This document shows, piece after piece, positions 15,775-50,613 of a DNA stretch of 64,000 bases (its first letter is position 1; the number at the start of each line of letters is the position of its first letter). Where the stretch lies: NCBI GenBank assembly GCA_903824675.1, contig CAIJXV010000006.1:46695-110694 (forward strand), in the 5' to 3' direction. The position numbers and the translations under genes are program-made. The notes beneath the pieces were generated by a model. It did no database searches. It was not told the origin of the DNA and saw nothing but the letters and a program-made list of their open reading frames with translations. This DNA is from an uncultured bacterium (GTDB taxonomy: Bacteria > Verrucomicrobiota > Kiritimatiellia > CAIKKV01 > CAIJXV01).

Positions 15775-16308
15775 TTGCTCTGTGAGTGTTATTTTTATGG
15801 GGGTGCCGTGTCGAATATTTCAATTTCTATTTCCCTGATAGAGGATCTTAGTCAGGCATTGCAGGGAGGGGTGCTTGCATCTGCGCCCGCAATTCGGCAA
15901 GTGGCCTCGGCTGAAAGGCGCTGGCGACCTGATTTTGGCGATATTTTCTGGGGAGTATTGGCACGGTTCAATCGTCATCAGAAACACTACGGGATGGTTG
16001 CGGACGATCATCTGGAATGCCCGCCAGTCCGGGTTCCTGTCCAGGGCGAACGTCCGGCTGTGGTCTTCGCTCCCATCACTTCGCTTCGGAATTCCAATCC
16101 CAAAACGATGGTTTTGCCTCCCGGCACCTTGCCGGCTAAAAAAACCGGTAAAAACACCCATGCCGAGGTCAATTCCTATCTCCTTCTGGCCTTGCGCATG
16201 CTCGTGGGTGTGAAAACCGTTACCTCGCAATTCGAACGGGTACGGCGGTTGCCCGATAATTGCATACAAGATGCGCGCCGTGTTCTCAAACGGGATACCC
16301 TCAAATGA
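15775..16308 (+). CDS. Possible small leading ORF of the island operon (hypothetical)
   Basis: Its TGA stop overlaps the ATG at 16305 of the next gene in an ATGA arrangement, suggesting translational coupling. No recognisable motif and the start is uncertain. It could be non-coding leader sequence. Confidence 0.25.
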   Translation: MLCECYFYGGAVSNISISISLIEDLSQALQGGVLASAPAIRQVASAERRWRPDFGDIFWGVLARFNRHQKHYGMVADDHLECPPVRVPVQGERPAVVFAPITSLRNSNPKTMVLPPGTLPAKKTGKNTHAEVNSYLLLALRMLVGVKTVTSQFERVRRLPDNCIQDARRVLKRDTLK

Positions 16309-17399
16309 CTCAGTCTGACGTCGAAACATCCCGGTCTCTGCCGATACGTGCTTGGTTAGAACGACTTATTGACCACGGCGAGGTTGATGAGGTCTTTTAT
16401 GGAGTTTTGATCGAACAGGTTGGGTATATGACCCGGACAACGGCTAGACATATCCGGACAGAAACCACTGAAGATCTGGTTTCGCCGGAAGATTTGGCCG
16501 GCGATTTCCTGCTTCACTTAAAAGCGGAAAACAAGCGCGAAATTCAAACTTTGTCCGGGCTAAAAAGGGAGTTCTCCAAGTTTTTGACCGACCGGAACGA
16601 TCCCGAATCGAAGGAGCTTTGGGAGATCATCAGCGATGCTTTGCACCAGGGAGGGCGTGAAGGGTGGGCTCGGCGCTTGGATGACTTGCATAGTGAAAAG
16701 AATCATAACCAGGCCGTTTGGACATCGGCTTTGCCGGGATGTGATCAAAAAACGTTGGATTTGGCCCAATTCGAACAGAGGGCAAAAAAGATTCCCTGCT
16801 TTTATCCCGGCCGGACAGCGGGACGAATTCTCCCTCCGTCTGATGCGGTTGAATTGATAAGGCGCCTTTTGAAAGAAGCCCAAGTTCCGATTGTATTTAG
16901 CATTCTCTTTAACGAAGCCCGACGCCATGTAGTATTTGGACTCAGATGGGCGGAGGAACTTGGGGAGGAAAGTGAGGCCGAAGATGGCGAAAAACCTCAA
17001 ATCCAACATGCAGATCGAAGTTGGGAGGTGGTGCAATGGGCCAGGGAAGAATCGGCGGAAAGGGGTGATCGGATTTGGTGTGCCATCCAAGCCCTGAAAA
17101 CTGAAAAAGTGCTTTGCCTTTATATACTTCCCAAGCATTTTCTGGGACAGAAACCGACTTTGTCCGGTATGGGCGATTTCCGCCGGACCAGTGAAAATAG
17201 TCTAGAAATCATGTCGATTCTTGCGCAAGAGCTTAAAGTGGAACGACTTAAATCTGATGCGGCACATCAACGGCCTGATGTTATTGACGAGCAAGACGAT
17301 GATTTTATCAAAGCGTGGACGGTAATGATTCACTTTGTAGCCGAACGGCTTTTGGTGAAATGTTCGGAAAAAGGGTTCAACCCGGCCTTATCATCATAA
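16260..17399 (+). CDS. Hypothetical protein (gene A of island operon); acidic patches, no recognisable domain
   Basis: Long ORF of intermediate GC. An alternative start at 16305 (MTQSDVETS) is coupled to the upstream ORF. Glu/Asp-rich segments EEESEAEDGE and DEQDDD. Confidence 0.6.
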   Translation: MHTRCAPCSQTGYPQMTQSDVETSRSLPIRAWLERLIDHGEVDEVFYGVLIEQVGYMTRTTARHIRTETTEDLVSPEDLAGDFLLHLKAENKREIQTLSGLKREFSKFLTDRNDPESKELWEIISDALHQGGREGWARRLDDLHSEKNHNQAVWTSALPGCDQKTLDLAQFEQRAKKIPCFYPGRTAGRILPPSDAVELIRRLLKEAQVPIVFSILFNEARRHVVFGLRWAEELGEESEAEDGEKPQIQHADRSWEVVQWAREESAERGDRIWCAIQALKTEKVLCLYILPKHFLGQKPTLSGMGDFRRTSENSLEIMSILAQELKVERLKSDAAHQRPDVIDEQDDDFIKAWTVMIHFVAERLLVKCSEKGFNPALSS

Positions 17400-17413
17400 C
17401 GGGGGGATTTGAC

Positions 17414-18343
17414 GTGAAAAGTCAGCCTATTCGGCAATTAGAAGGATTATTGAACAGGGTATTGCCGTCCAAAGGCACTCTGGAATCTGTCGAAAACATA
17501 CAAAACATTGGTCCCGGACAAATGTGGTCGACGAAAGCCATCTTGGATTATCCGATTCATTTTGGGGAGCATGAACTGTTTTGGGTCCTGGTAGTTCAAT
17601 CCCGAGTAATGACGCTGAATAAAGAAAGGGTCCATTTGGTTGCCCCACTTTTATCCGATCCGCATCTGGCGGGACCAGAGGATATCATTTTGCCGAAAGA
17701 AATCATGGGGCATCGGGTGGCATTGGCGTGGGGCAGTCGGATAACGGTATTGGAGAAAAGTCTGGACCGGTGTGAGGGTAAACTCCCTAAAAAGTGGTGC
17801 GATGTTGTGGCGCAACTATCCGCAAATGTGGATTTTCATGTTCTCCGGACCTCCGGCATTGAAATGGGATTTGATTATCTGGACAACCATGATATCCGAT
17901 TTGCCTATCATGAGAACTTGGTGGACCGATTGAGTTACCTGCAATCGCCAGTTATACAGGTTGTCTGGCATGAACAAGCGGATGTGATCCGCATGGACAA
18001 ATGGTTCTCCCGAATAGAGCGGGCGAAATGCCAGTCCTTGGCTGCGGCGACGGGAAGTGCTTTCGAAGAAAGTCTCTATTACCGGGTAGTCGGCAAAAAA
18101 CTGGTCATCAAGGTTGTGCTGGCAAGCGACTGGACCCACGTTCAACTGTTGATCCTGAATGAGAAGGGGGAACTCGCCCCTGAACTGGATGGGTGCCAAG
18201 TGGTCAATACGGAAGGCAAGGCTGTCGGAAAGCCCATCAATGATGCGCAGGTATTAATCGATCTAAACGAAATGCGGTGGGGATGGAGTCTGGTGGACAA
18301 AGATGAGACGAGCCGTAAAATCGAGTATCTGCCAAGCCCATGA
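17414..18343 (+). CDS. Hypothetical protein (gene B of island operon)
   Basis: GTG at 17414 preceded by a GGGGGG SD 7 nt upstream; the track's earlier ATG at 17315 would overlap gene A. The stop TGA overlaps the ATG of gene C (ATGA). Confidence 0.55.
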   Translation: MKSQPIRQLEGLLNRVLPSKGTLESVENIQNIGPGQMWSTKAILDYPIHFGEHELFWVLVVQSRVMTLNKERVHLVAPLLSDPHLAGPEDIILPKEIMGHRVALAWGSRITVLEKSLDRCEGKLPKKWCDVVAQLSANVDFHVLRTSGIEMGFDYLDNHDIRFAYHENLVDRLSYLQSPVIQVVWHEQADVIRMDKWFSRIERAKCQSLAAATGSAFEESLYYRVVGKKLVIKVVLASDWTHVQLLILNEKGELAPELDGCQVVNTEGKAVGKPINDAQVLIDLNEMRWGWSLVDKDETSRKIEYLPSP

Positions 18344-20400
18344 AATTCCCTCCCTTCAGTTATGCCGCTTTACACGAAGAATTACGACTCCACCCTGACT
18401 CCGTATCCGTTTTTACGACAATGGAACTGAAGCACTTGACGCGGATTCCCCCTATCGATCATTCACTTGCCGAGGTGCTAACCGCCGAGGCCATCTATCG
18501 GGAATCAATCAGTCGGTTCTCGGGTGAGTTTATGAGCGAGATCGAGCGTTTGTCGTGCGTGGATGATTATCAACGCATTAAAACAGCCTGGGGTGTAAAA
18601 GGCGAACCCAAATTGGAACATTTCGGGGACTGTCTGCGGGGCCTGGTGTCGGATCCGGTCGCACAGAGAGCCGGAGAACGCCTAGCCACCTTTTGGATGG
18701 CCGACGGGTTGATTCCCGTAGTTTGTAAGCGAGCCGGTGCTTGCGAAGCAATCCCCATCCCGTTTTGTTTACGGTTTGAGACAAGTGTGCACCCGGGAGC
18801 GATTGATTTGGCGGAATGTCCGATTCCGAAATGGGAGCAGGGAGTCCGGGTTTTACGCAAAGAACTGAAGGAACCGGGATTGGTCATTCAAGTATTGCAT
18901 GCGTTGGGACCGCGCGTGAACAACTTGCATGGAAACAGCTTCCAGTTACCGGTTTGTCTGGCGTATGCCCAGAAAAAGGGACGGGTGTCCGGTCGGGAAG
19001 TATTTCACTTTTTGGCCACTGGGGCGGTAAGTGCCGGGTGTATTCGCAAGGTCGACGCACTGGATGAAAAGTTGATCTTGGCGCGGAAACTGGGGCTTGT
19101 CTTTGTGGGTCCGGGGCTGGCGGAGGGCGAGGGCTTGTTCCCGATACAATCTGGGGCTCCATTGATTGCCGTTTGGTCCGCTTTAGGACAAAACGCATTG
19201 AGCGTTGGGCGCGTCAGGATTACGGGGCCCGCGTTAATGGACCTGATCCGGTGTTTGAGGGATGATTTGCATAATGGTGCGGTTTCATTGAAGGACGCAT
19301 CCCGAAAATGGGCTGTTTATACCCGGTATCTGAGCAAACTGGAGGCGGATTCGCCCTACCGCCAGGAAGCTCAACTGGAGCTGGTGCTTTTGAAAGGGGT
19401 AATTCAAACCCATTCAGGAAGTGCGTCCAAAGCTGTTCGCAGCCTGGCAAAGGCGTTTAAAACTGCGATCACATCAGGTGTTGATAATTTAAGCCTGATC
19501 AAGTTGATGGCCCATCAGATTGTCGCCTTAACCGACATCGGTCGATTTGAAGCAGCTGAGGTTTGGGGTTGTCGCGCCCGCCGAGAGTTGGGAAAAAAAT
19601 TCCGAGGGAAGGCGGAGGACCGTATCCGAGCGAAAATGACGCTAAATGGCGTATTGGGAGGGCAGGTGTTTCTGCAAAAAGGCTTACTGAAGTCTGAATA
19701 TGCGTCCCAAAGCCGAGTAATGTTGGTAAAGGCGCTGGAAGATGCTTGTCACCTACGGGAAACCCGAGAAATTCTGCGGGACAGGGTGCAACTCTATTTA
19801 TGGGAAGCTCTTTATAGGCCGGCCGATGCCCTATTGAATTATAGGGGGGTGGAGCAAGATTTATTAAAAGTGACTCCTGACGACCGATGGATGGCGCATC
19901 AATATCTGAAACGGCATCGCTGGCTGGCGGCCTATCGCCTGATTTTAAGCGGACTGAAAACGGAAGGACAACCTGAAGAATGGGATCTTCCGGAACCTAT
20001 GGTGGGGCCAGCCGGTTGGATTCGAGCGACGGCCTTGAAATATAGAGCCACTTGGCGAGCACGGTTGGGCGACTATGTCGGGGCCAAGACCGATTTTGAT
20101 GCGAGTCTTGGGCCTTGGACGCACATGATCGGCAAAAGGCGAATCATCATTTGCCGGGAGCCCTTGATTAGGTTCATTTCAGGCACCATTGCACATGAAG
20201 CGTGTCGATCCTTATCCGACTCAAATGCCAGGGCGAGCCGAGAATACCGAGATATTGCCGACATGCTATTCGAAGGGTGCATTCCAGCCCGACTAAAGGG
20301 ACCATTTTCGGCTCGACAATGGCAGGTAATGAATGCAAAAGAGTGGGTAAATCGGTCGCAGCCTGTTCGGCCGGATTTGCGCTGCCAAATAGTCTATTGA
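18340..20400 (+). CDS. Protein with Lon-like (S16) Ser-Lys protease domain, no ATPase motif, long helical C-terminal region
   Basis: Residues ~198-255, HGNSFQLPVCLAYA...GREVFHFLATGAVSAGCIRKVDALDEKLILARKLGLVFVGP, align with the Lon proteolytic core DGPSAG...[36 protein letters not shown]. Ser200 is at nt 18937-18939 and Lys244 at nt 19069-19071. No Walker A in the protein. 686 aa. Confidence 0.6.
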   Translation: MKFPPFSYAALHEELRLHPDSVSVFTTMELKHLTRIPPIDHSLAEVLTAEAIYRESISRFSGEFMSEIERLSCVDDYQRIKTAWGVKGEPKLEHFGDCLRGLVSDPVAQRAGERLATFWMADGLIPVVCKRAGACEAIPIPFCLRFETSVHPGAIDLAECPIPKWEQGVRVLRKELKEPGLVIQVLHALGPRVNNLHGNSFQLPVCLAYAQKKGRVSGREVFHFLATGAVSAGCIRKVDALDEKLILARKLGLVFVGPGLAEGEGLFPIQSGAPLIAVWSALGQNALSVGRVRITGPALMDLIRCLRDDLHNGAVSLKDASRKWAVYTRYLSKLEADSPYRQEAQLELVLLKGVIQTHSGSASKAVRSLAKAFKTAITSGVDNLSLIKLMAHQIVALTDIGRFEAAEVWGCRARRELGKKFRGKAEDRIRAKMTLNGVLGGQVFLQKGLLKSEYASQSRVMLVKALEDACHLRETREILRDRVQLYLWEALYRPADALLNYRGVEQDLLKVTPDDRWMAHQYLKRHRWLAAYRLILSGLKTEGQPEEWDLPEPMVGPAGWIRATALKYRATWRARLGDYVGAKTDFDASLGPWTHMIGKRRIIICREPLIRFISGTIAHEACRSLSDSNARASREYRDIADMLFEGCIPARLKGPFSARQWQVMNAKEWVNRSQPVRPDLRCQIVY

Positions 20401-20409
20401 GGTTCAGCG

Positions 20410-21255
20410 ATGAAAGATCAGTCCGATCCCAAGGTGCTGGTGCCCGAAAGTTTTCGATTAGCATCAGACTACATGTATGGAATTGAGATTGCGTTGCGAG
20501 AATTGATCATCGAAGTAATGGATGCAGATCCAAGCCATGGTCGACTATGGTATCTAAAGTTGGAACCTGCACGTGACGTAGTGAAAAAGATGCGAGAAGC
20601 GAGAACCGATCAACTTCGCAACCGGCATATCCAATTCATCGCCTATCACCCCATCTATTACACGGATTTTCCCGATTTGCGAAAATTGTTTGAAAGTAGA
20701 CTTGTCTGGCCTCGATTTGAGCGATATTTATGGGGAAAAGAAGCATTTCTTGGCGACTTGGAAAAACTTGAACCAATTCGGAATTCGATAGCCCACCATC
20801 GTCCGGTTCCACATTCAACGGTCGAAATTATTGCTCCTGTATGGAATATGCTAAAAAATCGACTGGGTGAAGAGAAGATAAAACTCTGGGTACAGAGGCC
20901 GACGGTTGTTGAAAATATTAGGGAGAAATTAAACCACATCAACCAAGAAATTCACAAAACATGGGAAGTGATCTCCCAGAAAGAGTGCCAACTGCCGGAT
21001 ATATTAGAAGTCCGAGACTGTGTAGCTGCTTGGTGGTTCACACGGGAGTACTTGCTGCCAGATAAGGAAGAAATACCGGAATTTGATAGTATTTTAAAAT
21101 ATTTCAATAAATTGTCGGAATATAATCAAAACATTCCCTTCCATGAACGAGGATACGTCATCAAGATTCGCAAATGGGTCGGCGAAAACAAAATTGACGA
21201 ACTTGTTACTAATGCCGAATCCGTAATGGTGGAGGCCCTTAATGGCTGGGGGTGA
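20410..21255 (+). CDS. HEPN-domain protein, Abi_2 (AbiD/AbiF)- or Swt1-like
   Basis: LEPIRNSIAHHRPV contains the Rx4HH HEPN RNase motif (R124, H129, H130; nt 20779-20799). 281 aa, similar in size to Abi_2 proteins. AGG-rich SD upstream. Confidence 0.6.
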   Translation: MKDQSDPKVLVPESFRLASDYMYGIEIALRELIIEVMDADPSHGRLWYLKLEPARDVVKKMREARTDQLRNRHIQFIAYHPIYYTDFPDLRKLFESRLVWPRFERYLWGKEAFLGDLEKLEPIRNSIAHHRPVPHSTVEIIAPVWNMLKNRLGEEKIKLWVQRPTVVENIREKLNHINQEIHKTWEVISQKECQLPDILEVRDCVAAWWFTREYLLPDKEEIPEFDSILKYFNKLSEYNQNIPFHERGYVIKIRKWVGENKIDELVTNAESVMVEALNGWG

Positions 21256-21258
21256 AAG

Positions 21259-24048
21259 ATGAATATTTCGGACTTTGAAAAAAACAATAATACAATAGAA
21301 AATGATTTAACAAGGGCAATTAAAGAAACCCCTAACCCCTTTAATCCACATTCGCCAGTTGAAGATCCCGAATTACTAGTCGGCAGGCAAGCGTTATTGC
21401 TGGAAATTGACATGCAGTTGAAAGAGTGTCATGAAACAAGACGTTTTCGACATGTCATTGTTTCAGGGGAGCGCGGATCAGGTAAAACCAGTCTTATGCA
21501 GGTGATTGCGCAAAAGTATTATAAGAAACAGTGTTTATGCCAAATTAAAATTGAATCCGACACGAGCCTGCGCGATCCGCTTTTGTTTCGGCAGATATTT
21601 CGCAAATTAATTGAAAGTCTTTTTAGTCAGACGTCGGAACGTTCGCGCGATATATCATCAATATTTCGCGGAAAGACTGATAAAGTATTTCAAAGAACCA
21701 TTAGTGATCTCGAAAAATATAGTCCCGGAATAAAGGACCAGGTTTTTGCCTTTCCAGAAATATACTTCGAAACCAAGGACATACAGGCAGATGCAATGTT
21801 TGAGATTAAAAAAGCCCTTAAAGCGGATATTGCCATTATCGCTGATAACTTGAATGTCCCACTTTTTATTCTGGTAGACGCTTTTGGAGGGGCCGAAACA
21901 AATGCTGAATTTATTTGCATTCTAGTGTCCCTATTTGAAAAGGTCAATAACGTTTGCCTTTTGACTATTGCTTCTGCTGAAACGATTCAGGTGTTGCACA
22001 ATAAATCAGAAACGCTCATTCGAACCGCAAAGAAATATGACATGCCTCCCTTGACGGCTGATGATATTCGCGCCTTATTTGTAAAAACTTTACTTCAAAA
22101 AGATTTATTTAGAGAATCCATTCAAAAAGCTTTGGCGACGACGAAATGGGATGTCGCCAGTTGTGTGGAATTTTCGCCGTTTTGGGGTGAGTTCAAGTAT
22201 CAAATAAAACCCGAATTAATCGCGCAATGTGCGCAGGGCAACCCATATCTTACAATGATGATGCTTTATGTTGCCTTCAAGAAAGCGAAGGCGACAGATA
22301 ACAAGGTAATTGCTTTTGATGCTGAGGTCTTAAAGGATGTTTTTGTTGAATTGCAATACGATCAGAAATATCAACCTTATCAAAAAACCTTTACGTGGAT
22401 CAAATCATTGGGTTCTCGTAAGCGACTTCTTTTAAGTTTTTTGCTGCAAATTAGGACGCCCATTAAACTCGAAGATCTTTTTGCATTTGAACTTTTGATT
22501 CACCATGAGGATTTTGTCGTCAGGAACGAACTTCTTACGGCATACAGAGATTTCTGCCGACAAGGTGCTATACGCGAGAATACGGACGGCACATTTAGTG
22601 TGATGCTGAATAGCATTGAATGCGCCTATTTGACCCTATTTCAAGCTAACGACTTGAATGATTTTCGATTTTATAAAAACTTGACTGATTTTGTTTCCTC
22701 GGAATTACTTGGCCAACTACTTCGCCCTAAGTCTTCGTCGCTGATAAGTCGAAGAACCCAGTTTGAGGAATTCATCGAATTGCTAGAACGTGAAGCCCAA
22801 TTTCACCCTGACTTTATCCCCCTCATTAGTAAAGTTAGATATAAAGATGCTCTAGATGTGCTGTCTATGGATATAGATCAATCTGGGAATTCCAATATTC
22901 CTTTGCACACTGCTTCTGGCCGTTGTGCAATCTTGGCGTTCCCTAGGTGGACAGAATCAGTAAACCATCCCAAATCAAATTATAAAGATATACCCTTTGC
23001 TCAGGCTCTCTCTCAGATTCGAAATTCGGCAGACTGCAAAAACTTAATGCGCAGTAATCTTTGGGGTTTAAAATGGTGCATCGAGTATGAACGCCTGGAA
23101 GATGAAGCTGGGGTTCGTTCGGAAATCCCGTGGCTTCTCCCTTTTTTGTATTTATCATTGCAGATGCCTCGCATTCCAGTTCTGACAATTAAAGCGAGCT
23201 TTTCAGAGCGTCGCATTGAAATCGTCGCGAGTTGGATGGCGGCTTTACAAGGTGAAGAATCAATAGAGGATTCCATTCAGCCTCGCCTTGAGCAGCTTAA
23301 GGCTAATGCACTGTTAGCCAGTGTGGAGTTGTCTTGCTCATGGGAATATTATGAACCATTGTATCTACATGATCTACCGGATTCATTTTATGAGATGTCA
23401 CTCTATCACCCAGAGTATGAGAAGTACCACAATAATTCAAAGCGGGAAGGCCCTTTTGTCAAGGAACAACTATACCATTTCGGGGCACTCCTGGCTGATT
23501 CGTGGGTTCATATCTGCGCACAACGAAAGTTTCGTGAGATAGAGATCTTCTTGACGCACTACTCAAGACTTATAATTCTTCCGGACGTCCAAAGATATCT
23601 TAGCTTTCAAGAATATGATAAGTCTTTGCTCACCTGTCAGATCGAGTTCTCATTAATTGTTGCGGGTCGGTATGACTTGGCGACTGAACTTATTTCTGTC
23701 TTGTTGCCACATTTCAAGGATCCCGTGTTTTTGGCTCTAACACATTATGGGCTAGCATTAATTGCATTGTGCCAAAGCAAATTCGATGTCGTAGTTTCGG
23801 AATTAGCTGAAATCCGCTGTCTTATTTCTTTGCACGCTAATGATTTTAAGCGATTCACTGAGGCCGTTTCAGCTCATGACTTCGCCAAATATTCGTCCGC
23901 CAAAGAAGGTTGTTTCAGCACATATTTCTTTATTCCTCTTCCTAAGGTCGAAAACGGCGAGATCGTTTTTGCTATTTCTAATGCCGCGGACTTCACGGCC
24001 GTTTGTGATTCGGTCGATACGGCAGTTAGAAGGAAGCCAGCTCGATAA
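21259..24048 (+). CDS. STAND / AAA_16-type P-loop NTPase with ~650 aa helical C-terminal (sensor-like) region
   Basis: ELLVGRQALLLEIDMQL...HVIVSGERGSGKTSLMQ is an AAA_16-style N-terminus with Walker A at aa 70-77. The Walker B-like motif is VPLFILVDAFGG. 929 aa, conspicuously AT-rich coding sequence. Confidence 0.7.
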   Translation: MNISDFEKNNNTIENDLTRAIKETPNPFNPHSPVEDPELLVGRQALLLEIDMQLKECHETRRFRHVIVSGERGSGKTSLMQVIAQKYYKKQCLCQIKIESDTSLRDPLLFRQIFRKLIESLFSQTSERSRDISSIFRGKTDKVFQRTISDLEKYSPGIKDQVFAFPEIYFETKDIQADAMFEIKKALKADIAIIADNLNVPLFILVDAFGGAETNAEFICILVSLFEKVNNVCLLTIASAETIQVLHNKSETLIRTAKKYDMPPLTADDIRALFVKTLLQKDLFRESIQKALATTKWDVASCVEFSPFWGEFKYQIKPELIAQCAQGNPYLTMMMLYVAFKKAKATDNKVIAFDAEVLKDVFVELQYDQKYQPYQKTFTWIKSLGSRKRLLLSFLLQIRTPIKLEDLFAFELLIHHEDFVVRNELLTAYRDFCRQGAIRENTDGTFSVMLNSIECAYLTLFQANDLNDFRFYKNLTDFVSSELLGQLLRPKSSSLISRRTQFEEFIELLEREAQFHPDFIPLISKVRYKDALDVLSMDIDQSGNSNIPLHTASGRCAILAFPRWTESVNHPKSNYKDIPFAQALSQIRNSADCKNLMRSNLWGLKWCIEYERLEDEAGVRSEIPWLLPFLYLSLQMPRIPVLTIKASFSERRIEIVASWMAALQGEESIEDSIQPRLEQLKANALLASVELSCSWEYYEPLYLHDLPDSFYEMSLYHPEYEKYHNNSKREGPFVKEQLYHFGALLADSWVHICAQRKFREIEIFLTHYSRLIILPDVQRYLSFQEYDKSLLTCQIEFSLIVAGRYDLATELISVLLPHFKDPVFLALTHYGLALIALCQSKFDVVVSELAEIRCLISLHANDFKRFTEAVSAHDFAKYSSAKEGCFSTYFFIPLPKVENGEIVFAISNAADFTAVCDSVDTAVRRKPAR

Positions 24049-24197: not shown

Positions 24198-26336
24198 TTA
24201 CGAATAATTGAATGGCAATAAACGGGCGATGTCGCTGGCCGACGAAATATCCGAACCTTTGAGGATATCTGAAAACTGGTCTATCCCGCCCCATGCTTTC
24301 AGGTACGATGCAAATGGCGTGGACTGTGCGATGAGGCTTTCTGTCCAAGACAGGCATTCCTGGAAGTGTTTTGCATGCGATTGATTGTCTCCGCGAATCT
24401 TGTTGATGACGGTGATCAATCCCAATTGGGATAAACCAATGGTTTGCACCGTAAAGTGTAACTTCTTGGATATGCTGACACCTTGAGCCAAGATCTGAGT
24501 AGCAGATTCATATTGTTGGGCTTGTAAAAACAAATACCCGATCCACTTGCAGAGATGTTCGCATGGATGATCTTCGAATATGCGGGTCTTCCACGTATCC
24601 CAAATGGCTGCCGTCATGTTTTTGTCAATAGGGATGACGTCAGCGGCCACTGCGTCGCAATGGGCCGAAGCGATTCGAAGATAATTGATCGCATTGAATG
24701 GGGAGAGATTCGGGGTTGTCATGATTTCAGGTAGTCTCGAAACTAAATCTGCCGGAGTTGCAACAGGATTATTCCCTGAATGCCTGTTCATTTCAGCGCA
24801 GGCGCGGTTGAGATCGTCCGATTGCCAGGCCAGGGTTGCCAGATAGTTTGCCGACATTGAATAATATGAAATACCAGAGGGGAAATGTTTGATGCTTTTT
24901 TCGAAATATGCGCGAGCCATGTCTCCCCAGGCGGGATCCGTCCGCGCTAGAAAAGCGCAGGCTTGGCCCAGTGATCCTTGCATTTGGCCCAGAAGTTCAT
25001 CAGGTTCATCCGCTGGCACTTCGGCTTCGCGGCGGTCGACATCATCGCTGAACGTGGTTAGCACCTCTTCGAATCGGTAATCATTGAAAAGATAATTGAG
25101 ATTTCGGTTTCGGATTTCCAGTAAACGTTCTTTTCGCGTGTTGTGAGTTCCGGGTAGTAAATTCATCTGTTGTTGAAGCAATGTTGTCAGGCGGGTTTCA
25201 ATGTCTTTTTGCGGATTAACGTTGCCTTGGTGATTATGGCAGGCGGCAAGATCACTCAGACCATCTGCCAGATAATTTGCCCAAACACGTTGATTTTCGA
25301 TGGAACCCTTCGCCCTCAGGTTGGCCTCGGCGATGTCGGTCAATTGATGAAGGAGTTTCTTTGCACCATCCAGATTTCCGGGTTCACGAGTGCGGCTAGC
25401 GATGAGAAAGCGGGTATAGGCGAGTAATGCGGATGTTTCGCGCATGAGTATCTGACTGTCGTCTTCGCGTTTTAGAGCCTGGATCAAGCGGGAATAATCG
25501 GGATGCCCTTCTGTAGTCGGTAAATAACGCCGCAAATAATCGGCGGTCGTTGCGTACTGTTTGTTCTCCAAAAGGCGCGCGACTTCGTGATCGTAATGCC
25601 GGCGATAGTCGCCAAACATGAATTCATCGGGATTAGTTCGCTCGACTATTGTCCCGTCTGGTGTTTTTTTGCCGCCGCGCAGAAGACAGCATACGAAGTC
25701 CGCTGCGATGAGGCCTGGATTCCGATCCCCAATACCCCACCGTAATAATAATCGATTTTCGGCATTCAATCTTCTGGTGAATGAGATGGCTGGCGAGTCG
25801 CCAGAAAGGATCTGGTCTTTGATATAGTCCAATAGGCGAGGCATGTAGTCGGGATAGTTTGAGTTGATGGTTTCTGCGATGGTTCGTTGTGCAACCATTA
25901 TTTCCACAGAATCAGCATTTGGGCATCGCGTGAAGAGTGTTTCCAGAGCCTTTCGCGTAGCGGCAACCAAATTCAAGACATAAGTGGCCTGCGGAGAAGT
26001 CTCAAATCGCTTGCCGGTATTTCTTGATGCGAAAAAAAAAGCACTTGAACCGCAGATGCCTGTAAAAACGGCATTTGTGAAGGCTTCGAGATCCCGCCTT
26101 GACACTGGGCCGGCGACTCGGAGGTGGCCTTCTAACAACTTGCCGCAATGATAATGATCGGGATAGATGAATTTAATGCGGGAATTTGAGTTAAAAGCTG
26201 AAAGTTGGTCGACATGCAATGCCTTCCACGCCTGATCATCAAGGGTGCTACAGATGCCCCCTACAAGAGAAGATGCCTTTCGAGTGATCCCTTCATCAAA
26301 GGAGCCGCTCTCGTCTATGAAAATGAAATATTTCAC
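24198..26336 (-). CDS. DUF3800 N-terminal domain protein with long TPR-like helical C-terminus
   Basis: The N-terminus MKYFIFIDESGSFD matches the characteristic DUF3800 start (M.Y..IDESG). 712 aa, AT-richer than flanking genes, convergent with the STAND gene. Confidence 0.55.
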   Translation of the reverse strand: MKYFIFIDESGSFDEGITRKASSLVGGICSTLDDQAWKALHVDQLSAFNSNSRIKFIYPDHYHCGKLLEGHLRVAGPVSRRDLEAFTNAVFTGICGSSAFFFASRNTGKRFETSPQATYVLNLVAATRKALETLFTRCPNADSVEIMVAQRTIAETINSNYPDYMPRLLDYIKDQILSGDSPAISFTRRLNAENRLLLRWGIGDRNPGLIAADFVCCLLRGGKKTPDGTIVERTNPDEFMFGDYRRHYDHEVARLLENKQYATTADYLRRYLPTTEGHPDYSRLIQALKREDDSQILMRETSALLAYTRFLIASRTREPGNLDGAKKLLHQLTDIAEANLRAKGSIENQRVWANYLADGLSDLAACHNHQGNVNPQKDIETRLTTLLQQQMNLLPGTHNTRKERLLEIRNRNLNYLFNDYRFEEVLTTFSDDVDRREAEVPADEPDELLGQMQGSLGQACAFLARTDPAWGDMARAYFEKSIKHFPSGISYYSMSANYLATLAWQSDDLNRACAEMNRHSGNNPVATPADLVSRLPEIMTTPNLSPFNAINYLRIASAHCDAVAADVIPIDKNMTAAIWDTWKTRIFEDHPCEHLCKWIGYLFLQAQQYESATQILAQGVSISKKLHFTVQTIGLSQLGLITVINKIRGDNQSHAKHFQECLSWTESLIAQSTPFASYLKAWGGIDQFSDILKGSDISSASDIARLLPFNYS

Positions 26337-26609
26337 GGATTAAACACCTTATATCTTTGTTAGTTACTGATATTGCGGAATTCCCCTTCCCAGCGCAAGT
26401 TCGTTCTTTGAACCCTCTATACAACGGGACGAATTTCCAAGGAGGATTATTTGGGCAATTTCATCGGAAAAGTTGTTAGACGTCGGCTTCCAGTAATTTG
26501 CAACGTCTGCGATTGAATTCTAGCTACAAATGAAGATTTACCTGATGAAAACGATTTTAGGCCTTGGTTTCTGGTTCGGGTTGGTGGCGTTGTTGGTTTG
26601 GGAGGAACT

Positions 26610-28862
26610 GTGAAAAACGTATCTTCATATCGAGAAATACTGATCAATAAGACATGCCTGACCCGCGACCAATCGGCGATGATCGGGGCTTTGTCTCAAT
26701 TTTTTGATTCTGATCAAAGCCGGGTCTTTCTTCTCAAGGGTTATGCCGGAACGGGGAAAACCTATATCCTCCGGCAGATCGCCGAAGCCCTGTCGGTCGC
26801 GAAACTGCCGTTCTGTCTGCTGACCCCCACGGGGCGTGCGGCGCGTATCCTGGGTAAACGCACCGGCTTCCCCGCGCGGACCATTCATAGCCTGATGTAT
26901 GCCATGAACCAGGTACGGGAATATGAAAAAGATGAGGAGCGCTTTCAACTCCACTTCGAATTGTCCGATCCCAGTGGGATCGATAGCCGGATGGTTTTTC
27001 TGGTGGATGAGTCGTCCCTGATTGGCGATCGGGAAGGTGAACAGGAATTCTTGCGGTTTGGGTCGGGTCGCTTGCTCAAGGATTTTATTGATTATACGCG
27101 GGTGGGAGTGTCAGGGCTGGAAACGCGGATCGTATTTGCGGGGGATCCGGCCCAATTGCCGCCGGTGAATGATAACATTTCGCCGGCATTGTCGTCCGAA
27201 TATTTGAAGAAGACGCACAATTTGGTGGCCCAAACAGCGGAATTAACCGAGGTGGTGCGGCAGAAGGGTGGAAGTCCGGTTCTGCGCGTGGCTACGGAAT
27301 TGCGCAATAGTCTAGCGAATGGCCGGGTTAACAAGCTGGCGGTACCGGAGGAACCACCGGCCATCCGGTCAATCCAGCCCGCGGACGCCTCGAAATTGAT
27401 CGCGGAGGCATGTCGGGTGGATGCGATGGCGGAGGAGGTGCTGGTGACCTACAGCAATGAACTGGCGTTGAAATACAACCAGGCGGTGCGCGGTCATCTG
27501 TATGGGAATGAACAGGCTTCGGTACGGGTGGGGGACCGGGTGATGGTGAACACCAACAATCCGTGTTGGGGCCTGATGAACGGTGATTTTGCGGCGTTGC
27601 TAGGTGTCGCGCCTGAGCCCGAGATCCGTCAGGTTGCAGTTCGGGGGCAGGACGTCCAGGCGCTCATCTTCCGACGGGTGACGGCGGGTTGGCTGAATGC
27701 GGAGAACCAGCCGGTGCGACTGGAATGCTTGGTGATGGAAAATCTGCTGGATTCGCGCGAGCGGGATTTGACCCGGCCGGAAATGATGGCGCTCTACGTG
27801 GATTTCAAGAATCGGAATCCAGATCTGAAGCCACACACGCGCGATTTTGAGACGGCGCTACGGGCAGATGAGTATTTCAACGCGTTACGGGTGAAATATG
27901 GTTATGCGGTGACCTGCCACAAGGCGCAGGGTGGGGAGTGGGACCGGGTGATCGTGGACTTTCGGACCGGGGGAGGGTGGTCAAATCCCGCGTATTTTCG
28001 CTGGTGCTATACGGCTATAACGCGGGCCCGGAGTGAATTGCTGACGATCAATGCGCCGCAGTTTGTCCATTCCTGGGTGGGAATTCGGCGGGTGGGGGTG
28101 GGGAAAGGGGAGGGGAAGTTGTTGGTTGCTGCGGTGTTGGTTGATAGCGGGGAGGATGAAGGGATGGAGCGGAAGCCAAAGTGCTCGGTGGATGAAGCGA
28201 GCGGTGAGATCAGTGCGGGAACGCCCGGCTGTACCGGGGAACAACAAGATGAAGACAAGGCCGGCTGGCCGGGGGTCAAGTGGGCAGAGGGACATGAGCC
28301 GTTGAAACTTAAAGCCAATTGCTTTGCGGCGATGTTGCGGGCACAGGGTTTCGAGGTGGGTGTGCTGGAGCATGGCAACTATTTTGAACGGTACACAATT
28401 ATGGACGGCGCGAGACCGATCAAAATCCAGGTCTATTACGATGGAAGGATGCGATTCCGTGTACCCCAGCCGATGCCCCGCGGCAAGGTTTCGGTGGATG
28501 ATCCGGCTTTTAAGAAAATCGCAGCGTTATTCCTGTCGGCGATCCCCGAGGATGGCGGAATGGCTGAGGAAGGGGCCAAACCCCAAGCGGTTGAGTTGCG
28601 GGCAAAACTGGAGGAATTGCGGGCGCAGGGAGTGGATGTGTTGCGGCTGGATAGCGGGGAATATGTGGATCGGGTGACCTTGCGTCGGGAAACGTCGGTG
28701 GCTGAGGTGGATTTTTATCATGATCGCAAAGGGCGTTATACATCCTGGCAGATCATGCCGACCCGCGATCCTGAATTTCGGGGATGGTTGACCGGCCGGA
28801 TCGAGGATTTACTGATGACGCCGGAACAAAGTGCCGTGCAAGGTGTGGATTTACTGGAATGA
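26610..28862 (+). CDS. RecD/TraA-like SF1B DNA helicase (AAA_30 + UvrD_C_2) with ~270 aa C-terminal extension
   Basis: Walker A LLKGYAGTGKTY, Walker B FLVDESSLIG, motif FAGDPAQLPPV, and VTCHKAQGGEWDRVIV. Start uncertain (GTG at 26610 with GGAGG upstream; the track used TTG at 26598). Confidence 0.8.
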   Translation: MKNVSSYREILINKTCLTRDQSAMIGALSQFFDSDQSRVFLLKGYAGTGKTYILRQIAEALSVAKLPFCLLTPTGRAARILGKRTGFPARTIHSLMYAMNQVREYEKDEERFQLHFELSDPSGIDSRMVFLVDESSLIGDREGEQEFLRFGSGRLLKDFIDYTRVGVSGLETRIVFAGDPAQLPPVNDNISPALSSEYLKKTHNLVAQTAELTEVVRQKGGSPVLRVATELRNSLANGRVNKLAVPEEPPAIRSIQPADASKLIAEACRVDAMAEEVLVTYSNELALKYNQAVRGHLYGNEQASVRVGDRVMVNTNNPCWGLMNGDFAALLGVAPEPEIRQVAVRGQDVQALIFRRVTAGWLNAENQPVRLECLVMENLLDSRERDLTRPEMMALYVDFKNRNPDLKPHTRDFETALRADEYFNALRVKYGYAVTCHKAQGGEWDRVIVDFRTGGGWSNPAYFRWCYTAITRARSELLTINAPQFVHSWVGIRRVGVGKGEGKLLVAAVLVDSGEDEGMERKPKCSVDEASGEISAGTPGCTGEQQDEDKAGWPGVKWAEGHEPLKLKANCFAAMLRAQGFEVGVLEHGNYFERYTIMDGARPIKIQVYYDGRMRFRVPQPMPRGKVSVDDPAFKKIAALFLSAIPEDGGMAEEGAKPQAVELRAKLEELRAQGVDVLRLDSGEYVDRVTLRRETSVAEVDFYHDRKGRYTSWQIMPTRDPEFRGWLTGRIEDLLMTPEQSAVQGVDLLE

Positions 28863-28876
28863 CGGGATGATGAGCG

Positions 28877-30802
28877 ATGAACGAGGTAAAAACCATATTT
28901 CAGATGCGCCGTGAGGGACGATTGGCTGAAGCCCTTGAAATGGCTCGAACCTTTTGCGTCGCGAACCCGGCGGATTCCTGGGGTGTGAAGGCGCTGGCCT
29001 GGGTTCTGCGCGACCTTATTCTCGGTTGCCTGAAAGCGAAGGATCGGTCCGGTGCAACGGATTTATATCTGGAATTCGCACAATTACCCATTGGGGAAGA
29101 TGATATCGTCTTGGTCCAGACGGCCGATTGGCTGAAGAGTGCCGTGGACGATCCGGTGCGGCCGCTGTTGGACCAGGCAAAGCAATCTCAGGAAGCGGGC
29201 GATTTGGGTGCAAGTCTCGCGATTCTGCGGGATGTGGTTAGGCAGTATCCGCAATCGGAGCAGGCCCGGTCAGCGTTGGGGTGGGCGATTTACCGGGTCT
29301 TACACGCGATGGGACGGGAAGAGCATCCTGACCGACAGGCGGTTCTATCCTATTTGCGGGAATATCGAGCATTGTTTCCCCAACCCAAACCAGGCACGTT
29401 ACACTCGGCGATTCTGAATGCCGCCACCAAGCTGAGCGATGACTTGCCGCAATTTCCCCGTTTCTTTTTGTGGTGGGGTCCGGATAACTTTCAGACGGAG
29501 GATGCCCGGCCATTTTGCCCAAAGGATTCAGATCAGACATTTCCGAGCCTGGTTGAAAAAACGATCAAGGCGCTGTATCGCACCTGTAAAGGGCTTGAGG
29601 ACCTGGAAGTCGTGGGGCGGTGTGCTGATTTTGTAAAACTCTGGTTGCCGCGGTTTCCTGAGCAAGAATGGTTTGGGTATTATTACGGCCGGATGCTTAT
29701 TTTCGCGGGGCGGCTGGAGGAGGCGCGGGGGTACTTGATGCCGATCATTCGCAAGAAGCAGTCGGAATTCTGGGCTTGGGCGGCACTGGCCGACACCTTT
29801 GGGGAAGCGGCTCATGAAGAGCGGGTGACGTGTCTCTGTCAGGCGGCCCGGTGCCCTATTCATGACGAGTCCTTCAAAGTTGGGGTCCACACGGCGCTGG
29901 CTGAATTGCTGGCCCGGATGAATAAGAAGTCCGAAGCCCGTTGGGAACTCCAGACGGTGGTGAAGATCCGCGCCGAGAAGTGGTGGAAAATAACATCCGA
30001 AATTCAGGCGATGCAGGCAGCTGATTGGGCGGTGGGTGAGCCGGCGGATGACGGGAATCAGTCCTTATACGAGGAGTATGGGGCTCGGGCCTCATCCATT
30101 TTATGCGAAGGGTTGCCGTGGGAAAATGCCATCGTATTGGAAGTGTCAGAGGCCCGACCGTCTGATGGGCCGGAGCGGCGAGCCGTGCCGCCACTGGTGA
30201 TGATTGGATTAGGGAAAGGACCGCGTTTGACGACGCTCCGATTAAAACAGAATTTTTCGAGGGCAACGCGTGACGCACGGGTGGGGATGCCGGTGCGGAT
30301 CCGGCAAGATCAGGCGATGGAACACCCGTCCGTGATGGCGTTCGAATCGCGGGTCGGTACGGATTGGGATCTGCTTCCCGAACGGGCAGGGATCGTATTG
30401 TCGAATTCGGATGAGCGAGGGCTGACGATCATTTATCTCGGAGGCGATGAAGTAGTTTTTCTTTACCATGATCGGCTGCCGGAAGTCCAGGCCTATGAAG
30501 TGGGTGAATTTGTGAAAGTGCGGGTGATTTGGAATGAGCGGTCCGCTCGATTCAAGTGGCTGACCGTGGCTCTGGATTTGACTCCCTCGCCGGTGGCATG
30601 GTGCCGTGAGTTTGCGGACTCGGTTCGCCTGTCGGCCAACGGGGGGTTTGGCTTTGCGGGGGATGTATTTATCCAGCCCGGCTTGGTCAGCGAACAGGGG
30701 GTGACGGATGGATGCCAGGTGCGGGGAAGAGCGATTTTGCGCAAGAAACCGAACCGGGGCGAGTTGGGTTGGCAGGCGGTGACTGTGGCGGTGAAAGCGT
30801 AA
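28877..30802 (+). CDS. Large helical-repeat (TPR-like) protein with C-terminal beta-rich (OB-like?) region, unknown function
   Basis: 641 aa ORF starting 14 nt after the helicase stop. The N-terminal 400 aa are predicted helical repeats. No catalytic motif recognised. Confidence 0.5.
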   Translation: MNEVKTIFQMRREGRLAEALEMARTFCVANPADSWGVKALAWVLRDLILGCLKAKDRSGATDLYLEFAQLPIGEDDIVLVQTADWLKSAVDDPVRPLLDQAKQSQEAGDLGASLAILRDVVRQYPQSEQARSALGWAIYRVLHAMGREEHPDRQAVLSYLREYRALFPQPKPGTLHSAILNAATKLSDDLPQFPRFFLWWGPDNFQTEDARPFCPKDSDQTFPSLVEKTIKALYRTCKGLEDLEVVGRCADFVKLWLPRFPEQEWFGYYYGRMLIFAGRLEEARGYLMPIIRKKQSEFWAWAALADTFGEAAHEERVTCLCQAARCPIHDESFKVGVHTALAELLARMNKKSEARWELQTVVKIRAEKWWKITSEIQAMQAADWAVGEPADDGNQSLYEEYGARASSILCEGLPWENAIVLEVSEARPSDGPERRAVPPLVMIGLGKGPRLTTLRLKQNFSRATRDARVGMPVRIRQDQAMEHPSVMAFESRVGTDWDLLPERAGIVLSNSDERGLTIIYLGGDEVVFLYHDRLPEVQAYEVGEFVKVRVIWNERSARFKWLTVALDLTPSPVAWCREFADSVRLSANGGFGFAGDVFIQPGLVSEQGVTDGCQVRGRAILRKKPNRGELGWQAVTVAVKA

Positions 30803-50538: not shown

Positions 50539-50613
50539 GCGCCCATCGTCTATCGGTCAGGACACTAGGTTTTCATCCTAGTAAGCCGGGTTCGACTCCC
50601 GGTGGGCGCGCCA
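50539..50613 (+). tRNA. tRNA-Glu (anticodon UUC)
   Basis: Cloverleaf: 7-bp acceptor stem GCGCCCA/TGGGCGC, D-arm GTCTATCGGTCAGGACA, anticodon stem CTAGG/CCTAG with loop TTTTCAT (anticodon TTC), T-arm CCGGGTTCGACTCCCGG, and a 3' CCA. Confidence 0.85.

Follow-up and report, generated by a model that had tools for sequence, protein, structure and literature searches.

The gene at positions 24198..26336 of the window (the whole stretch of 64,000 nucleotides that was analysed) encodes a 712-aa divergent DUF3800-TPR protein, and raises the question of whether such a protein acts by itself or in company with a neighbouring immune system. The ORF lies on the (-) strand, with a GTG start at 26336 and the stop codon at 24198-24200, has a GC content of 0.486, and is monocistronic in the window, being convergent with one neighbour and divergent from the other. 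The gene was confirmed as real, with 62 full-length homologues, in which length and architecture are always intact (705-747 aa), and an AF2 model at a pLDDT of 91.7. A promoter and terminator scan of the gene stayed at background level, and an Rfam scan around it for published DUF3800-associated RNA motifs found none.

A DUF3800-type head on a helical module

The N-terminal domain (residues 1-~243, 25608..26336, (-) strand) has an RNase H2-like fold in the model, as published for DUF3800, and is followed by an all-helical TPR-like module (residues ~244-712, 24201..25607, (-) strand). Structure prediction had been suggested in the preliminary description of this locus, and the resulting two-part architecture bears out the fusion of a DUF3800-type head to about 450 aa of helical repeats that was proposed there. 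The C-terminal module carries the conserved motifs NHxG (H369, G371), NRNLNxLFNDYRF (containing N418), GSxGQ, and HPxE (P591), and ends in an LPFxY tail. It has a likeness to the peptide-binding modules of Rap, PlcR and LGN, and a Foldseek search of the full model against the PDB returned generic TPR solenoids only, at TM<=0.3.

DUF3800 proteins are marked by an N-terminal DE motif and a C-terminal QxxD motif, and have been linked structurally to RNase H2 (PMC7736814). The match to the Pfam DUF3800 model (PF12686) on which the preliminary description had staked its reading of the N-terminus was absent at thresholds as lax as E<=10, whether the whole protein or its first 250 residues were searched; scans against Pfam, NCBIfam, and PADLOC were likewise empty, and 0 families of PADLOC-DB v2 matched at E<=0.01. 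The DUF3800 call nevertheless stood by remote homology. A profile of the N-domain, searched against 1.84e9 representatives, retrieved only 139 proteins, nearly all of them 630-740 aa long and starting with this domain, and the same-architecture proteins that it recruited had E values from 1e-23 to 1e-3. PF12686 was matched by 14 of 44 distant same-architecture relatives (best E 6.6e-8), P0092 scored 25.0 bits against a gathering cut-off of 21, and full-length profile-profile alignment of A1 with A3 (hhalign) gave 100% probability over 684 columns. By sequence comparison, the protein is homologous to proteins that match PF12686, though it has no such match itself, and within the DUF3800-TPR family it ranks as a rare and strongly diverged member, with a predicted biochemical role. 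Family members are annotated in their source records as 'hypothetical protein' throughout.

The residues of the N-domain that are invariant family-wide are D8 and E9 (26310-26315), H63 (26148-26150), Y119 (25980-25982), R151 (25884-25886), and D213 (25698-25700), with 98-100% conservation across 91 distant and 70 close members; in the same comparison, E155 and D243 were conserved within the close clade only. Where the QxxD motif would have its Gln, three residues ahead of D213, the protein has Ile. The canonical DEDD tetrad of RNase H is not conserved, D, E and one D alone being invariant, and with E155 and D243 confined to the close clade the head could therefore bind rather than cut. The N-domain profile had no match among PDB sequences at E<=10, and its comparison by hhalign with an RNase HII alignment stayed under 1% probability. 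The RNase HII alignment was made from the enzymes of E. coli, T. maritima, and S. aureus, each sequence checked against the PDB, and the comparison yielded nothing beyond six residues (YPDHYH/YPTAFH), a match no better than chance; because this comparison failed, the catalytic-residue equivalences are drawn from fold and conservation only. Compared with type 2 RNase H (RNase HII/HIII/H2A; PDB 1io2, 4py5, 3puf), the head has no sequence or profile similarity, does not conserve the third and fourth carboxylates, in whose place stand the invariant H63, Y119, and R151, and differs further by extra helices and the TPR fusion; type 2 RNase H is housekeeping, whereas the present protein is rare and island-borne. 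No activity has been demonstrated for any DUF3800 protein in the literature cited here.

The lack of a conserved tetrad would suit a non-catalytic adaptor or regulator, the head of which only binds a signal in the form of nucleic acid or RNA fragments, or acts as an off-switch by degrading that signal, and so tunes a partner instead of killing. Partner systems already own nucleases (McrC-like PD-(D/E)xK, PLD), relatives in CRISPR loci accompany the tRNA-cleaving or tRNA-signalling effectors Cas12a3 (PMC13594972) and Cas13 CASK (10.64898/2026.08.25.746378), and one homologue (locus L006) adjoins an RtcR-like CARF regulator and a Csx1-like CARF-HEPN protein. The absolute conservation of D8, E9, and D213 together with H63 and R151 is, however, what a functional metal-dependent site typically shows, neither a ligand nor an RNA partner came to light, and the Rfam scan gave no motif near the gene; a purely regulatory head is considered improbable.

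Published relatives and homologue loci

TPR-DUF3800 proteins have been reported to accompany Cas12a2/a3, type III, and type VI loci as accessories, and their RNase H fold is described as having its catalytic site rearranged (PMC10910872, PMC13594972, PMC12669027). These accessories have the same two-part architecture as the protein studied here (RNase H-fold DUF3800 and TPR-type repeats in one polypeptide); full-length homology extends to relatives including the type III-embedded P0077, and the published Cas12a-linked proteins are likened by description. The present clade differs from the CRISPR accessories in being invisible to the Pfam model, in having no cas genes nearby, and in its partners, which are PDC-M26, STAND, TOTE, and a Lon-like paralogue. 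Csx32 of the Cas13 CASK operon (bioRxiv 10.64898/2026.08.25.746378) is likewise a DUF3800 accessory, and its immune operon encodes a TPR protein as well, but there it is the kinase Csx33, and not Csx32, that carries the TPR domain, whereas here that domain is in the same chain, and the window contains no kinase. The DUF3800 proteins of type VII retrons (fused to or beside a reverse transcriptase; PMC7736814) share the N-terminal DE motif, the missing Q of the QxxD motif, the predicted RNase H2-like structure, and the defence context, but not the ~450-aa helical module, and both the reverse transcriptase and the msr/msd of retrons are absent at this locus.

Partner counts were made over 20 informative homologue loci. 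Every informative locus was a defence island, none was purely housekeeping, and no relatives were found in the plasmids, phages, and IMG/VR searched, in line with the defence setting that the preliminary description had expected. Cas domains were absent from the window genes scanned (7.6 to 34.6 kb), and no close-clade locus lists cas effector genes; only the distant P0077 lies inside a type III cas operon, where it overlaps cas6b.

That description had left two roles side by side, an independent single-gene defence or an accessory component. As an autonomous defence, the protein would sense a phage protein or peptide through its TPR-like module and free the RNase H-like head, leading to abortive infection, with the neighbours reflecting island clustering only. 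Its monocistronic position, the invariably intact length and architecture, the likeness of the TPR domain to peptide-binding modules, and the wide differences in neighbours among loci all agree with this, and four homologues flanked by unrelated systems without overlap (L004, L016, L019, L026) also fit an autonomous gene. Elsewhere, however, 4-bp stop/start overlaps join homologues to partner genes that are unrelated to one another, namely an NB-ARC STAND (L015), a PLD protein (L022), and an upstream gene (P0005 locus), and in L001 a Lon-like gene is followed after a 16-bp gap by the homologue. A tail-to-tail PDC-M26 pair (McrBC-like) is kept beside homologues in 6 different, independent genomic settings, across which it co-diverges with the family (identity falling to 46-50% for the DUF3800-TPR protein, and to 23% for the McrC-like partner). 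The embedding of distant relatives in cas operons, and a C-terminal module held in common with a Lon-like neighbour (below), also speak against autonomy. Because the start/stop overlaps with unrelated partner genes recur elsewhere, the accessory role is the likelier of the two, and an autonomous defence is regarded as unlikely. Such tight linkage recurs with several different immune modules of bacteria, which the family accompanies as a plug-in gene. The STANDs that adjoin the gene or its homologues in the window, L015, and L021 had no detectable mutual relationship, so the family has no one STAND partner that is conserved.

Neighbours in the window

Divergent from the gene lies a TOTE (TPR-OB-TBP-Effector)/PDC-M16 pair (26598..30802, (+) strand; Pfam PF22721, PF22860, PF22707), made up of an SF1 helicase with a TBP-TOTE domain (26598-28862, (+) strand) and a TPR-DUF7017-S1/CSD protein (28877-30802, (+) strand), and matched by PADLOC as PDC-M16A (E 9e-197) and PDC-M16B (E 6.6e-103). 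The DUF3800-TPR protein might be the effector 'E' of this system, supplying an RNase H-fold domain in trans. The pair is complete and physically adjacent, the same trio together with a STAND recurs in L015 and L021 at an identity of only 36-45% for the DUF3800-TPR protein, and its RNase H2-like head would match the RNase H-fold effectors that TOTE reportedly uses, RNase H domains being called frequent in TOTE systems in a passage of PMC12458937 that cites Aravind et al. 2022. TOTE pairs nevertheless flank the family at only 3/20 informative loci, which is not the pattern of a regular TOTE component, and the protein has no PADLOC model. Members of the helicase family number at least 7986, compared with ~140 in the DUF3800-TPR family, a search for a 'Rosetta stone' fusion found DUF3800 in none of the top 120 helicase homologues, the TOTE pair has the GC of the host background (0.57) and not 0.486, and the target repeats are without similarity to the TPR of TOTE-B. 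A TOTE effector is thus quite improbable, and the association with a RecD-like helicase raised in the preliminary description is weak, given the locus count and the size of the helicase family.

At 3.8 kb on the convergent side, and on the opposite strand, lies the probable partner, a 686-aa Lon/CalpL-like protein (18340..20400, (+) strand) with a Ser-Lys motif (S200 at 18937-18939, K244 at 19069-19071). Its C-terminal helical module is homologous to that of the DUF3800-TPR family (hhalign 80.6%, E 1.3e-5, 254 columns), and in its own family GxSxxLPVxxA...K is invariant. The protein's profile matches CalpL, the CRISPR-associated SAVED-Lon protease (PDB 7qda, 8b0r), weakly but across the dyad (E 0.044), with the GxSxxL...K motifs aligned, and PADLOC SAVED-Lon and CARF-Lon models match at residues 195-258 (E 0.002-0.003). 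CalpL is an accessory protease of an immune locus and the Lon-like protein is predicted to be one; unlike CalpL, it has no detected SAVED or CARF sensor, its C-terminal half being the helical module. Lon-like relatives adjoin DUF3800-TPR homologues in L001, L002, L010, and L023, the two genes there being co-directional, whereas in the window their distance and opposite strands count against the accessory reading; a Lon-like partner was counted in 5/20 informative loci, a figure that carries ascertainment bias from four relatives found only by looking in the homologue loci. The one independently retrieved relative (L027) lies on a 3.5-kb contig with no DUF3800-TPR gene on it. The preliminary description had passed over this Lon-like gene, which is the best supported partner inside the window.

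Upstream of the Lon-like gene, and overlapping it, is a gene for a 342-aa protein with no Pfam or PADLOC match (17315..18343, (+) strand); the two are conserved as a pair in L023 and L027 (tblastn E 8e-6 and 1e-6 through L027; profile search). A 379-aa protein, also without a Pfam or PADLOC match, is encoded by the first gene of this block of like composition (16260..17399, (+) strand, GC 0.489), and no homologue of it was found in other loci; in L001, homologues of both upstream genes were sought and not found. The block has a GC content of 0.49-0.53 (0.526 for the Lon-like gene, against 0.486 for the DUF3800-TPR gene). Between the two lies a low-GC cassette (20410..24048, (+) strand, GC 0.41-0.43; Pfam, PADLOC) convergent on the DUF3800-TPR gene, consisting of an Abi_2-like/PDC-M34B gene (20410-21255, (+) strand) and a 929-aa STAND-like NTPase (21259-24048, (+) strand). 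Kinship of the target repeats with the STAND C-terminus or the TOTE-B TPR was rejected, neither giving a match in control comparisons. The STAND/Abi cassette was probably acquired on its own and inserted between the Lon-like and DUF3800-TPR genes, and the original partner in the window is most likely the equally AT-shifted operon 16260-20400, ending in the Lon-like protease.

Predicted mode of action and significance

On balance, and with moderate confidence, we favour a modular accessory or effector, the helical module of which docks to a partner and gates a nuclease-like head, with the 16260-20400 operon as the original partner. The protein would then not be a self-sufficient system. Its helical module may dock onto the partner or sense the partner's signal, candidate partners being the Lon/CalpL-like paralogue with the same module, the STAND NTPase, the McrBC-like PDC-M26 pair, and the TOTE helicase pair, and, in distant relatives, CRISPR effectors. 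Docking would gate the RNase H-like head and lead to cutting of nucleic acid, the likeliest substrate being RNA, either alone or as one strand of a hybrid. The STAND/Abi cassette may have come between the operon and the DUF3800-TPR gene later, with the TOTE pair a neighbour of different composition.

A more speculative extension, which we think distinctly unlikely, is that the DUF3800 head and the Lon/CalpL-like head are alternative outputs on one NHxG-type helical sensor, forming an undescribed two-effector (RNase and protease) unit that is recruited by different upstream detectors and maybe responds to a shared RNA-derived signal. For the present clade these detectors would be STAND, McrBC-like, and TOTE systems; for its distant relatives they would be CRISPR systems of types III, V, and VI. 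The idea of a shared RNA signal (e.g. tRNA fragments) comes from the company that the family keeps, namely Cas12a3, Cas13-CASK, and the RtcR/Csx1-like pair in L006.

DUF3800-TPR proteins have been noted time and again as accessories alongside Cas12a2/a3, Cas13, and type III systems, and the present protein adds a Pfam-invisible branch. The family is not CRISPR-specific, since it also attaches to McrBC-like, STAND, and TOTE modules, and its function must therefore serve nucleic-acid immunity in general. The smallest set of invariant residues to mutate is now defined (D8, E9, H63, Y119, R151, D213), and a Lon-like protease paralogue carrying the same C-terminal module has been identified. Taken together, these findings suggest as hypotheses that the proteins form a heteromer, that activation is proteolytic, or that a signal is shared. 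If the shared-sensor idea is true, CRISPR accessory signalling would be linked to non-CRISPR defence.

A probable divergent DUF3800-TPR protein and the conserved site of its family

The gene under study occupies 24198-26336 on the reverse strand (712 codons, GTG initiation codon), exactly as the preliminary description had it. It converges on the 929-aa STAND-like ORF, which ends at 24048, across 149 nt, and diverges from the helicase ORF, whose start at 26598 is 261 nt away; this arrangement, too, had been described there. Among 5.8 billion clustered proteins searched, 62 proved to be full-length homologues (705-747 aa, 35-64% identity), and since these exist and numerous polar residues are invariant in their alignment, among them D8-E9-S10-G11, the ORF is, judged by its conservation, a real gene.

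Assignment to DUF3800, for which the lack of a profile match had been named beforehand as counting against it, failed by direct matching and held by remote homology to DUF3800-matching proteins. The Pfam scan of the protein gave no match at E≤0.01, DUF3800 was not matched even at E≤10 by the whole protein or its isolated N-terminal 250 aa, the C-terminal half gave TPR matches at noise level only (E≤10), and PADLOC and NCBIfam scans gave no match. Searching 1.84 billion representatives with an N-domain profile retrieved only 139 proteins at E≤1e-3, almost all of which, fragments aside, are 630-740 aa long with the domain N-terminal. Pfam DUF3800 was matched by 14 of 44 distant members (best E 6.6e-8), TPR models were matched by several of them, and the family member P0092 scored above the DUF3800 gathering score (25.0 vs 21 bits). 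Profile-profile comparison of the close family with the 44 distant members gave 100% probability over 684 columns, so that the entire two-domain architecture is homologous.

An AlphaFold2 model built from the 62-sequence alignment (pLDDT 91.7, pTM 0.81) predicts an alpha/beta domain from residue 1 to ~243 and an all-helical remainder, in agreement with the described fusion to about 450 aa of helical repeats. The modelled N-terminal domain has an RNase H2-like fold, the fold published for DUF3800 (PMC7736814; PMC10910872) and of the kind that had been anticipated as an informative outcome; the whole architecture has no counterpart among solved structures.

When 161 full-length members, 91 of them distant, were aligned together, D8, E9, G11, F13, H63, Y119, R151 and D213 were 98-100% conserved, even in the distant sequences. 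Within the helical part, H369/G371 (NHxG), N418 and P591 are conserved; E155 and D243 are conserved in the close clade only. Given the remote homology and the retention of every family-wide invariant residue, the protein is very probably a divergent DUF3800-TPR protein, belonging to a new clade unseen by the Pfam model and lacking a PADLOC entry. The family-wide invariant site, as read from the alignment, is also new; it follows the pattern D-E...H...Y...R...D, not the classical DEDD tetrad. Sequence-based alignment of the N-terminal domain to RNase HII gave no usable match, and equivalences between catalytic residues are therefore inferred only. The sole local hhalign match, YPDHYH (26148-26165, residues 58-63) to YPTAFH of RNase HII, spans 6 columns at a probability of 0.3% and is probably due to chance, though H63 is invariant across the family.

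Genomic neighbourhoods

Neighbourhoods were compared over all flanking ORFs at 20 informative loci, namely the window plus those obtained by scanning genomes and metagenomes and by looking up exact proteins. None of the 20 was purely housekeeping, which upholds the proposed defence setting, and no relatives were found in plasmid, phage or IMG/VR collections.

At six loci (L005, L007, L008, L016, L019, L025), a McrBC-like pair (PADLOC candidate PDC-M26), consisting of an AAA_5 protein and a DUF2357/PD-(D/E)xK protein, lies tail-to-tail 0-158 bp downstream of the DUF3800-TPR gene. The resulting three-gene unit, DUF3800-TPR, then McrC-like PDC-M26B (DUF2357/PD-(D/E)xK), then McrB-like PDC-M26A (AAA_5), is kept in six differing genomic settings (L005, L007, L008, L016-18, L019-20, L025), and the divergence of the partners parallels that of the DUF3800-TPR protein, the McrC-like protein being at 23% identity where the DUF3800-TPR proteins are at 46-50%. 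STAND-type NTPases are adjacent or one gene off in the window, L001, L015, L021 and the locus of family member P0005, with no detectable relationship to one another. At L022 (2170-12178), the homologue is the final, overlapping gene of an operon encoding a Cas_Cas02710-like protein, an AAA_11/AAA_12 SF1 helicase, a 425-aa protein without family match and a PLD nuclease. DrmD-like and SspH/HerA-like genes lie near the homologue at L003, and an integrase and a TrwC relaxase at L004. Azaca-like genes (ZacA/DUF6361, PLD protein and helicase) were also seen a few kb away at L022 and L026 (2-5838). This non-CRISPR partner repertoire, above all the conserved tail-to-tail PDC-M26 triple, is new.

In one sub-branch of Cas12a2, TPR-DUF3800 proteins have been described as accessories, accompanied at times by a UvrD helicase and another TPR protein (PMC10910872); they are also described in ~40% of Cas12a3 loci as well as type III loci (PMC13594972). 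The DUF3800 protein Csx32 belongs to the Cas13 CASK operon (10.64898/2026.08.25.746378), and DUF3800 is found in retron type VII too (PMC7736814). An activity for DUF3800 is given in none of these reports. The DUF3800-TPR immune accessory is of a kind already in the literature and uncharacterised there. Consistent with these CRISPR accessories, the distant relative P0077 lies within a type III operon (L024, 1-6606: Cas10 palm fragment, RAMP, two small genes, P0077, Cas6b, Cas1) and overlaps cas6b; no repeat array was seen on this short contig. At L006 (12694-15253), the homologue is followed by genes for a Csx1-like CARF-HEPN protein and an RtcR-like CARF-AAA-HTH regulator, an arrangement that echoes the family's link to the tRNA-cleaving Cas12a3 and to Cas13 CASK. 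Both the Csx1-like and the RtcR-like protein belong to RNA-damage or cyclic-nucleotide signalling.

The family is tightly linked to immune modules driven by NTPases or Cas proteins, a linkage re-invented repeatedly. The preliminary description had left the choice between an independent single-gene defence and an accessory component; the DUF3800-TPR gene shares four-base stop/start overlaps with a STAND gene at L015, with the gene for a PLD protein at L022 and, at the P0005 locus, with a gene upstream of it, and such repeated wiring into operons of unrelated systems favours an accessory, plug-in role over mere co-residence in islands. We consider that role probable, and autonomous defence by the single gene unlikely.

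The co-occurrence with helicases that had been put forward for checking proved weak, complete TOTE/PDC-M16 pairs being present only in the window, L015 and L021. That of the window (26598-30802, +) pairs an SF1 helicase bearing a TBP-TOTE domain with a TPR-DUF7017-S1/CSD protein, and a dedicated TOTE effector would fit these three loci; however, at least 7986 proteins (E≤1e-10) belong to the TOTE helicase family against ~140 for the DUF3800-TPR family, and DUF3800 is absent from the top 120 helicase homologues. TOTE is therefore unlikely as an obligate partner, and a dedicated effector role is very unlikely.

The window island and its Lon-like gene

The defence island spans ~15 kb (~15.7-30.8 kb), between rhamnose/LPS genes (rmlD, rmlB, UDP-glucose dehydrogenase, rmlA, heptosyltransferase; 9.7-15.6 kb) and an FGGY sugar kinase (33.1-34.6 kb). 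Its edges carry no integrase or tRNA, the sole tRNA being tRNA-Glu (50539-50613). GC content is 0.486 for the DUF3800-TPR gene and 0.489, 0.491 and 0.526 for the three genes of the 16260-20400 operon (16260-17399, 17315-18343 and 18340-20400, all +), and because these values are similar, the simplest reading is that gene and operon may have been acquired together. The Abi_2-like/PDC-M34B gene (0.429) and the STAND (0.411), at 20410-24048 (+), fall far below both their flanks (0.49-0.57) and look like a separately acquired cassette, on the simplest reading inserted afterwards between the two. The TOTE genes (0.566 and 0.570) match the host background (flanking housekeeping genes, 0.55-0.59), and would most simply be resident or a separately acquired neighbour. 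The window STAND has only ~40 aa ahead of its P-loop and no recognisable effector domain.

The product of the third operon gene (18340-20400, +; 686 aa) has no Pfam match. The motif GxSxxLPVxxA...(~40 aa)...K, with S200 and K244, is invariant in this protein and its four relatives, residues 195-258 are matched by PADLOC SAVED-Lon and CARF-Lon models (E 0.002-0.003), and the family profile matches the CRISPR protease CalpL (7qda/8b0r) over precisely this stretch (E 0.044), aligning the motif with the CalpL Ser-Lys dyad. These three weak, independent pointers suggest that it likely has a Lon-type Ser-Lys protease core. Its C-terminal half matches the DUF3800-TPR helical module (hhalign 80.6%, E 1.3e-5, 254 columns), pairing NHxG with NHxG, LTD...EEA with LFNDYRFEEA and GGQ with GS-GQ; two controls, the TPR-bearing TOTE protein and the STAND, gave no match to that module. 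Two neighbouring genes with different enzymatic heads therefore carry a homologous repeat module, and this Lon-like paralogue is new.

Relatives of the Lon-like gene occur beside DUF3800-TPR homologues in L001, L002, L010 and L023. A caveat to joint acquisition is that in the window the Lon-like gene and the DUF3800-TPR gene lie on opposite strands, whereas elsewhere the two are co-directional. The upstream gene (17315-18343, 342 aa) is conserved with it in L023 and L027. A second caveat is that a word-indexed search found only two clusters of Lon-like relatives, the independent one being L027, a short contig with no DUF3800-TPR gene visible. Both families end in a conserved aromatic tail, LPFxY-A/S in DUF3800-TPR proteins (24198-24215 in the window) and with a final Tyr in the Lon-like proteins; it is a possibility that this tail docks into a TPR groove.

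Proposed function

The protein combines a predicted RNase H2-like domain, bearing an invariant acidic and basic site, with a conserved TPR-like module that has invariant polar motifs of its own. On balance we favour an accessory in which the repeat module would dock to a partner or recognise a trigger, and docking would control a putative nuclease head. That the head is catalytic is a tentative proposal, and it would most probably hydrolyse RNA, either alone or as one strand of a hybrid. Very unlikely is a role as an adaptor without catalysis or as a regulator that degrades a signal. The most novel scheme, though a rather unlikely one, is that a sensor module shared with the Lon-like paralogue would drive RNase and protease outputs below various detectors, perhaps by way of an RNA-derived signal; its interest would be high if it proved true.
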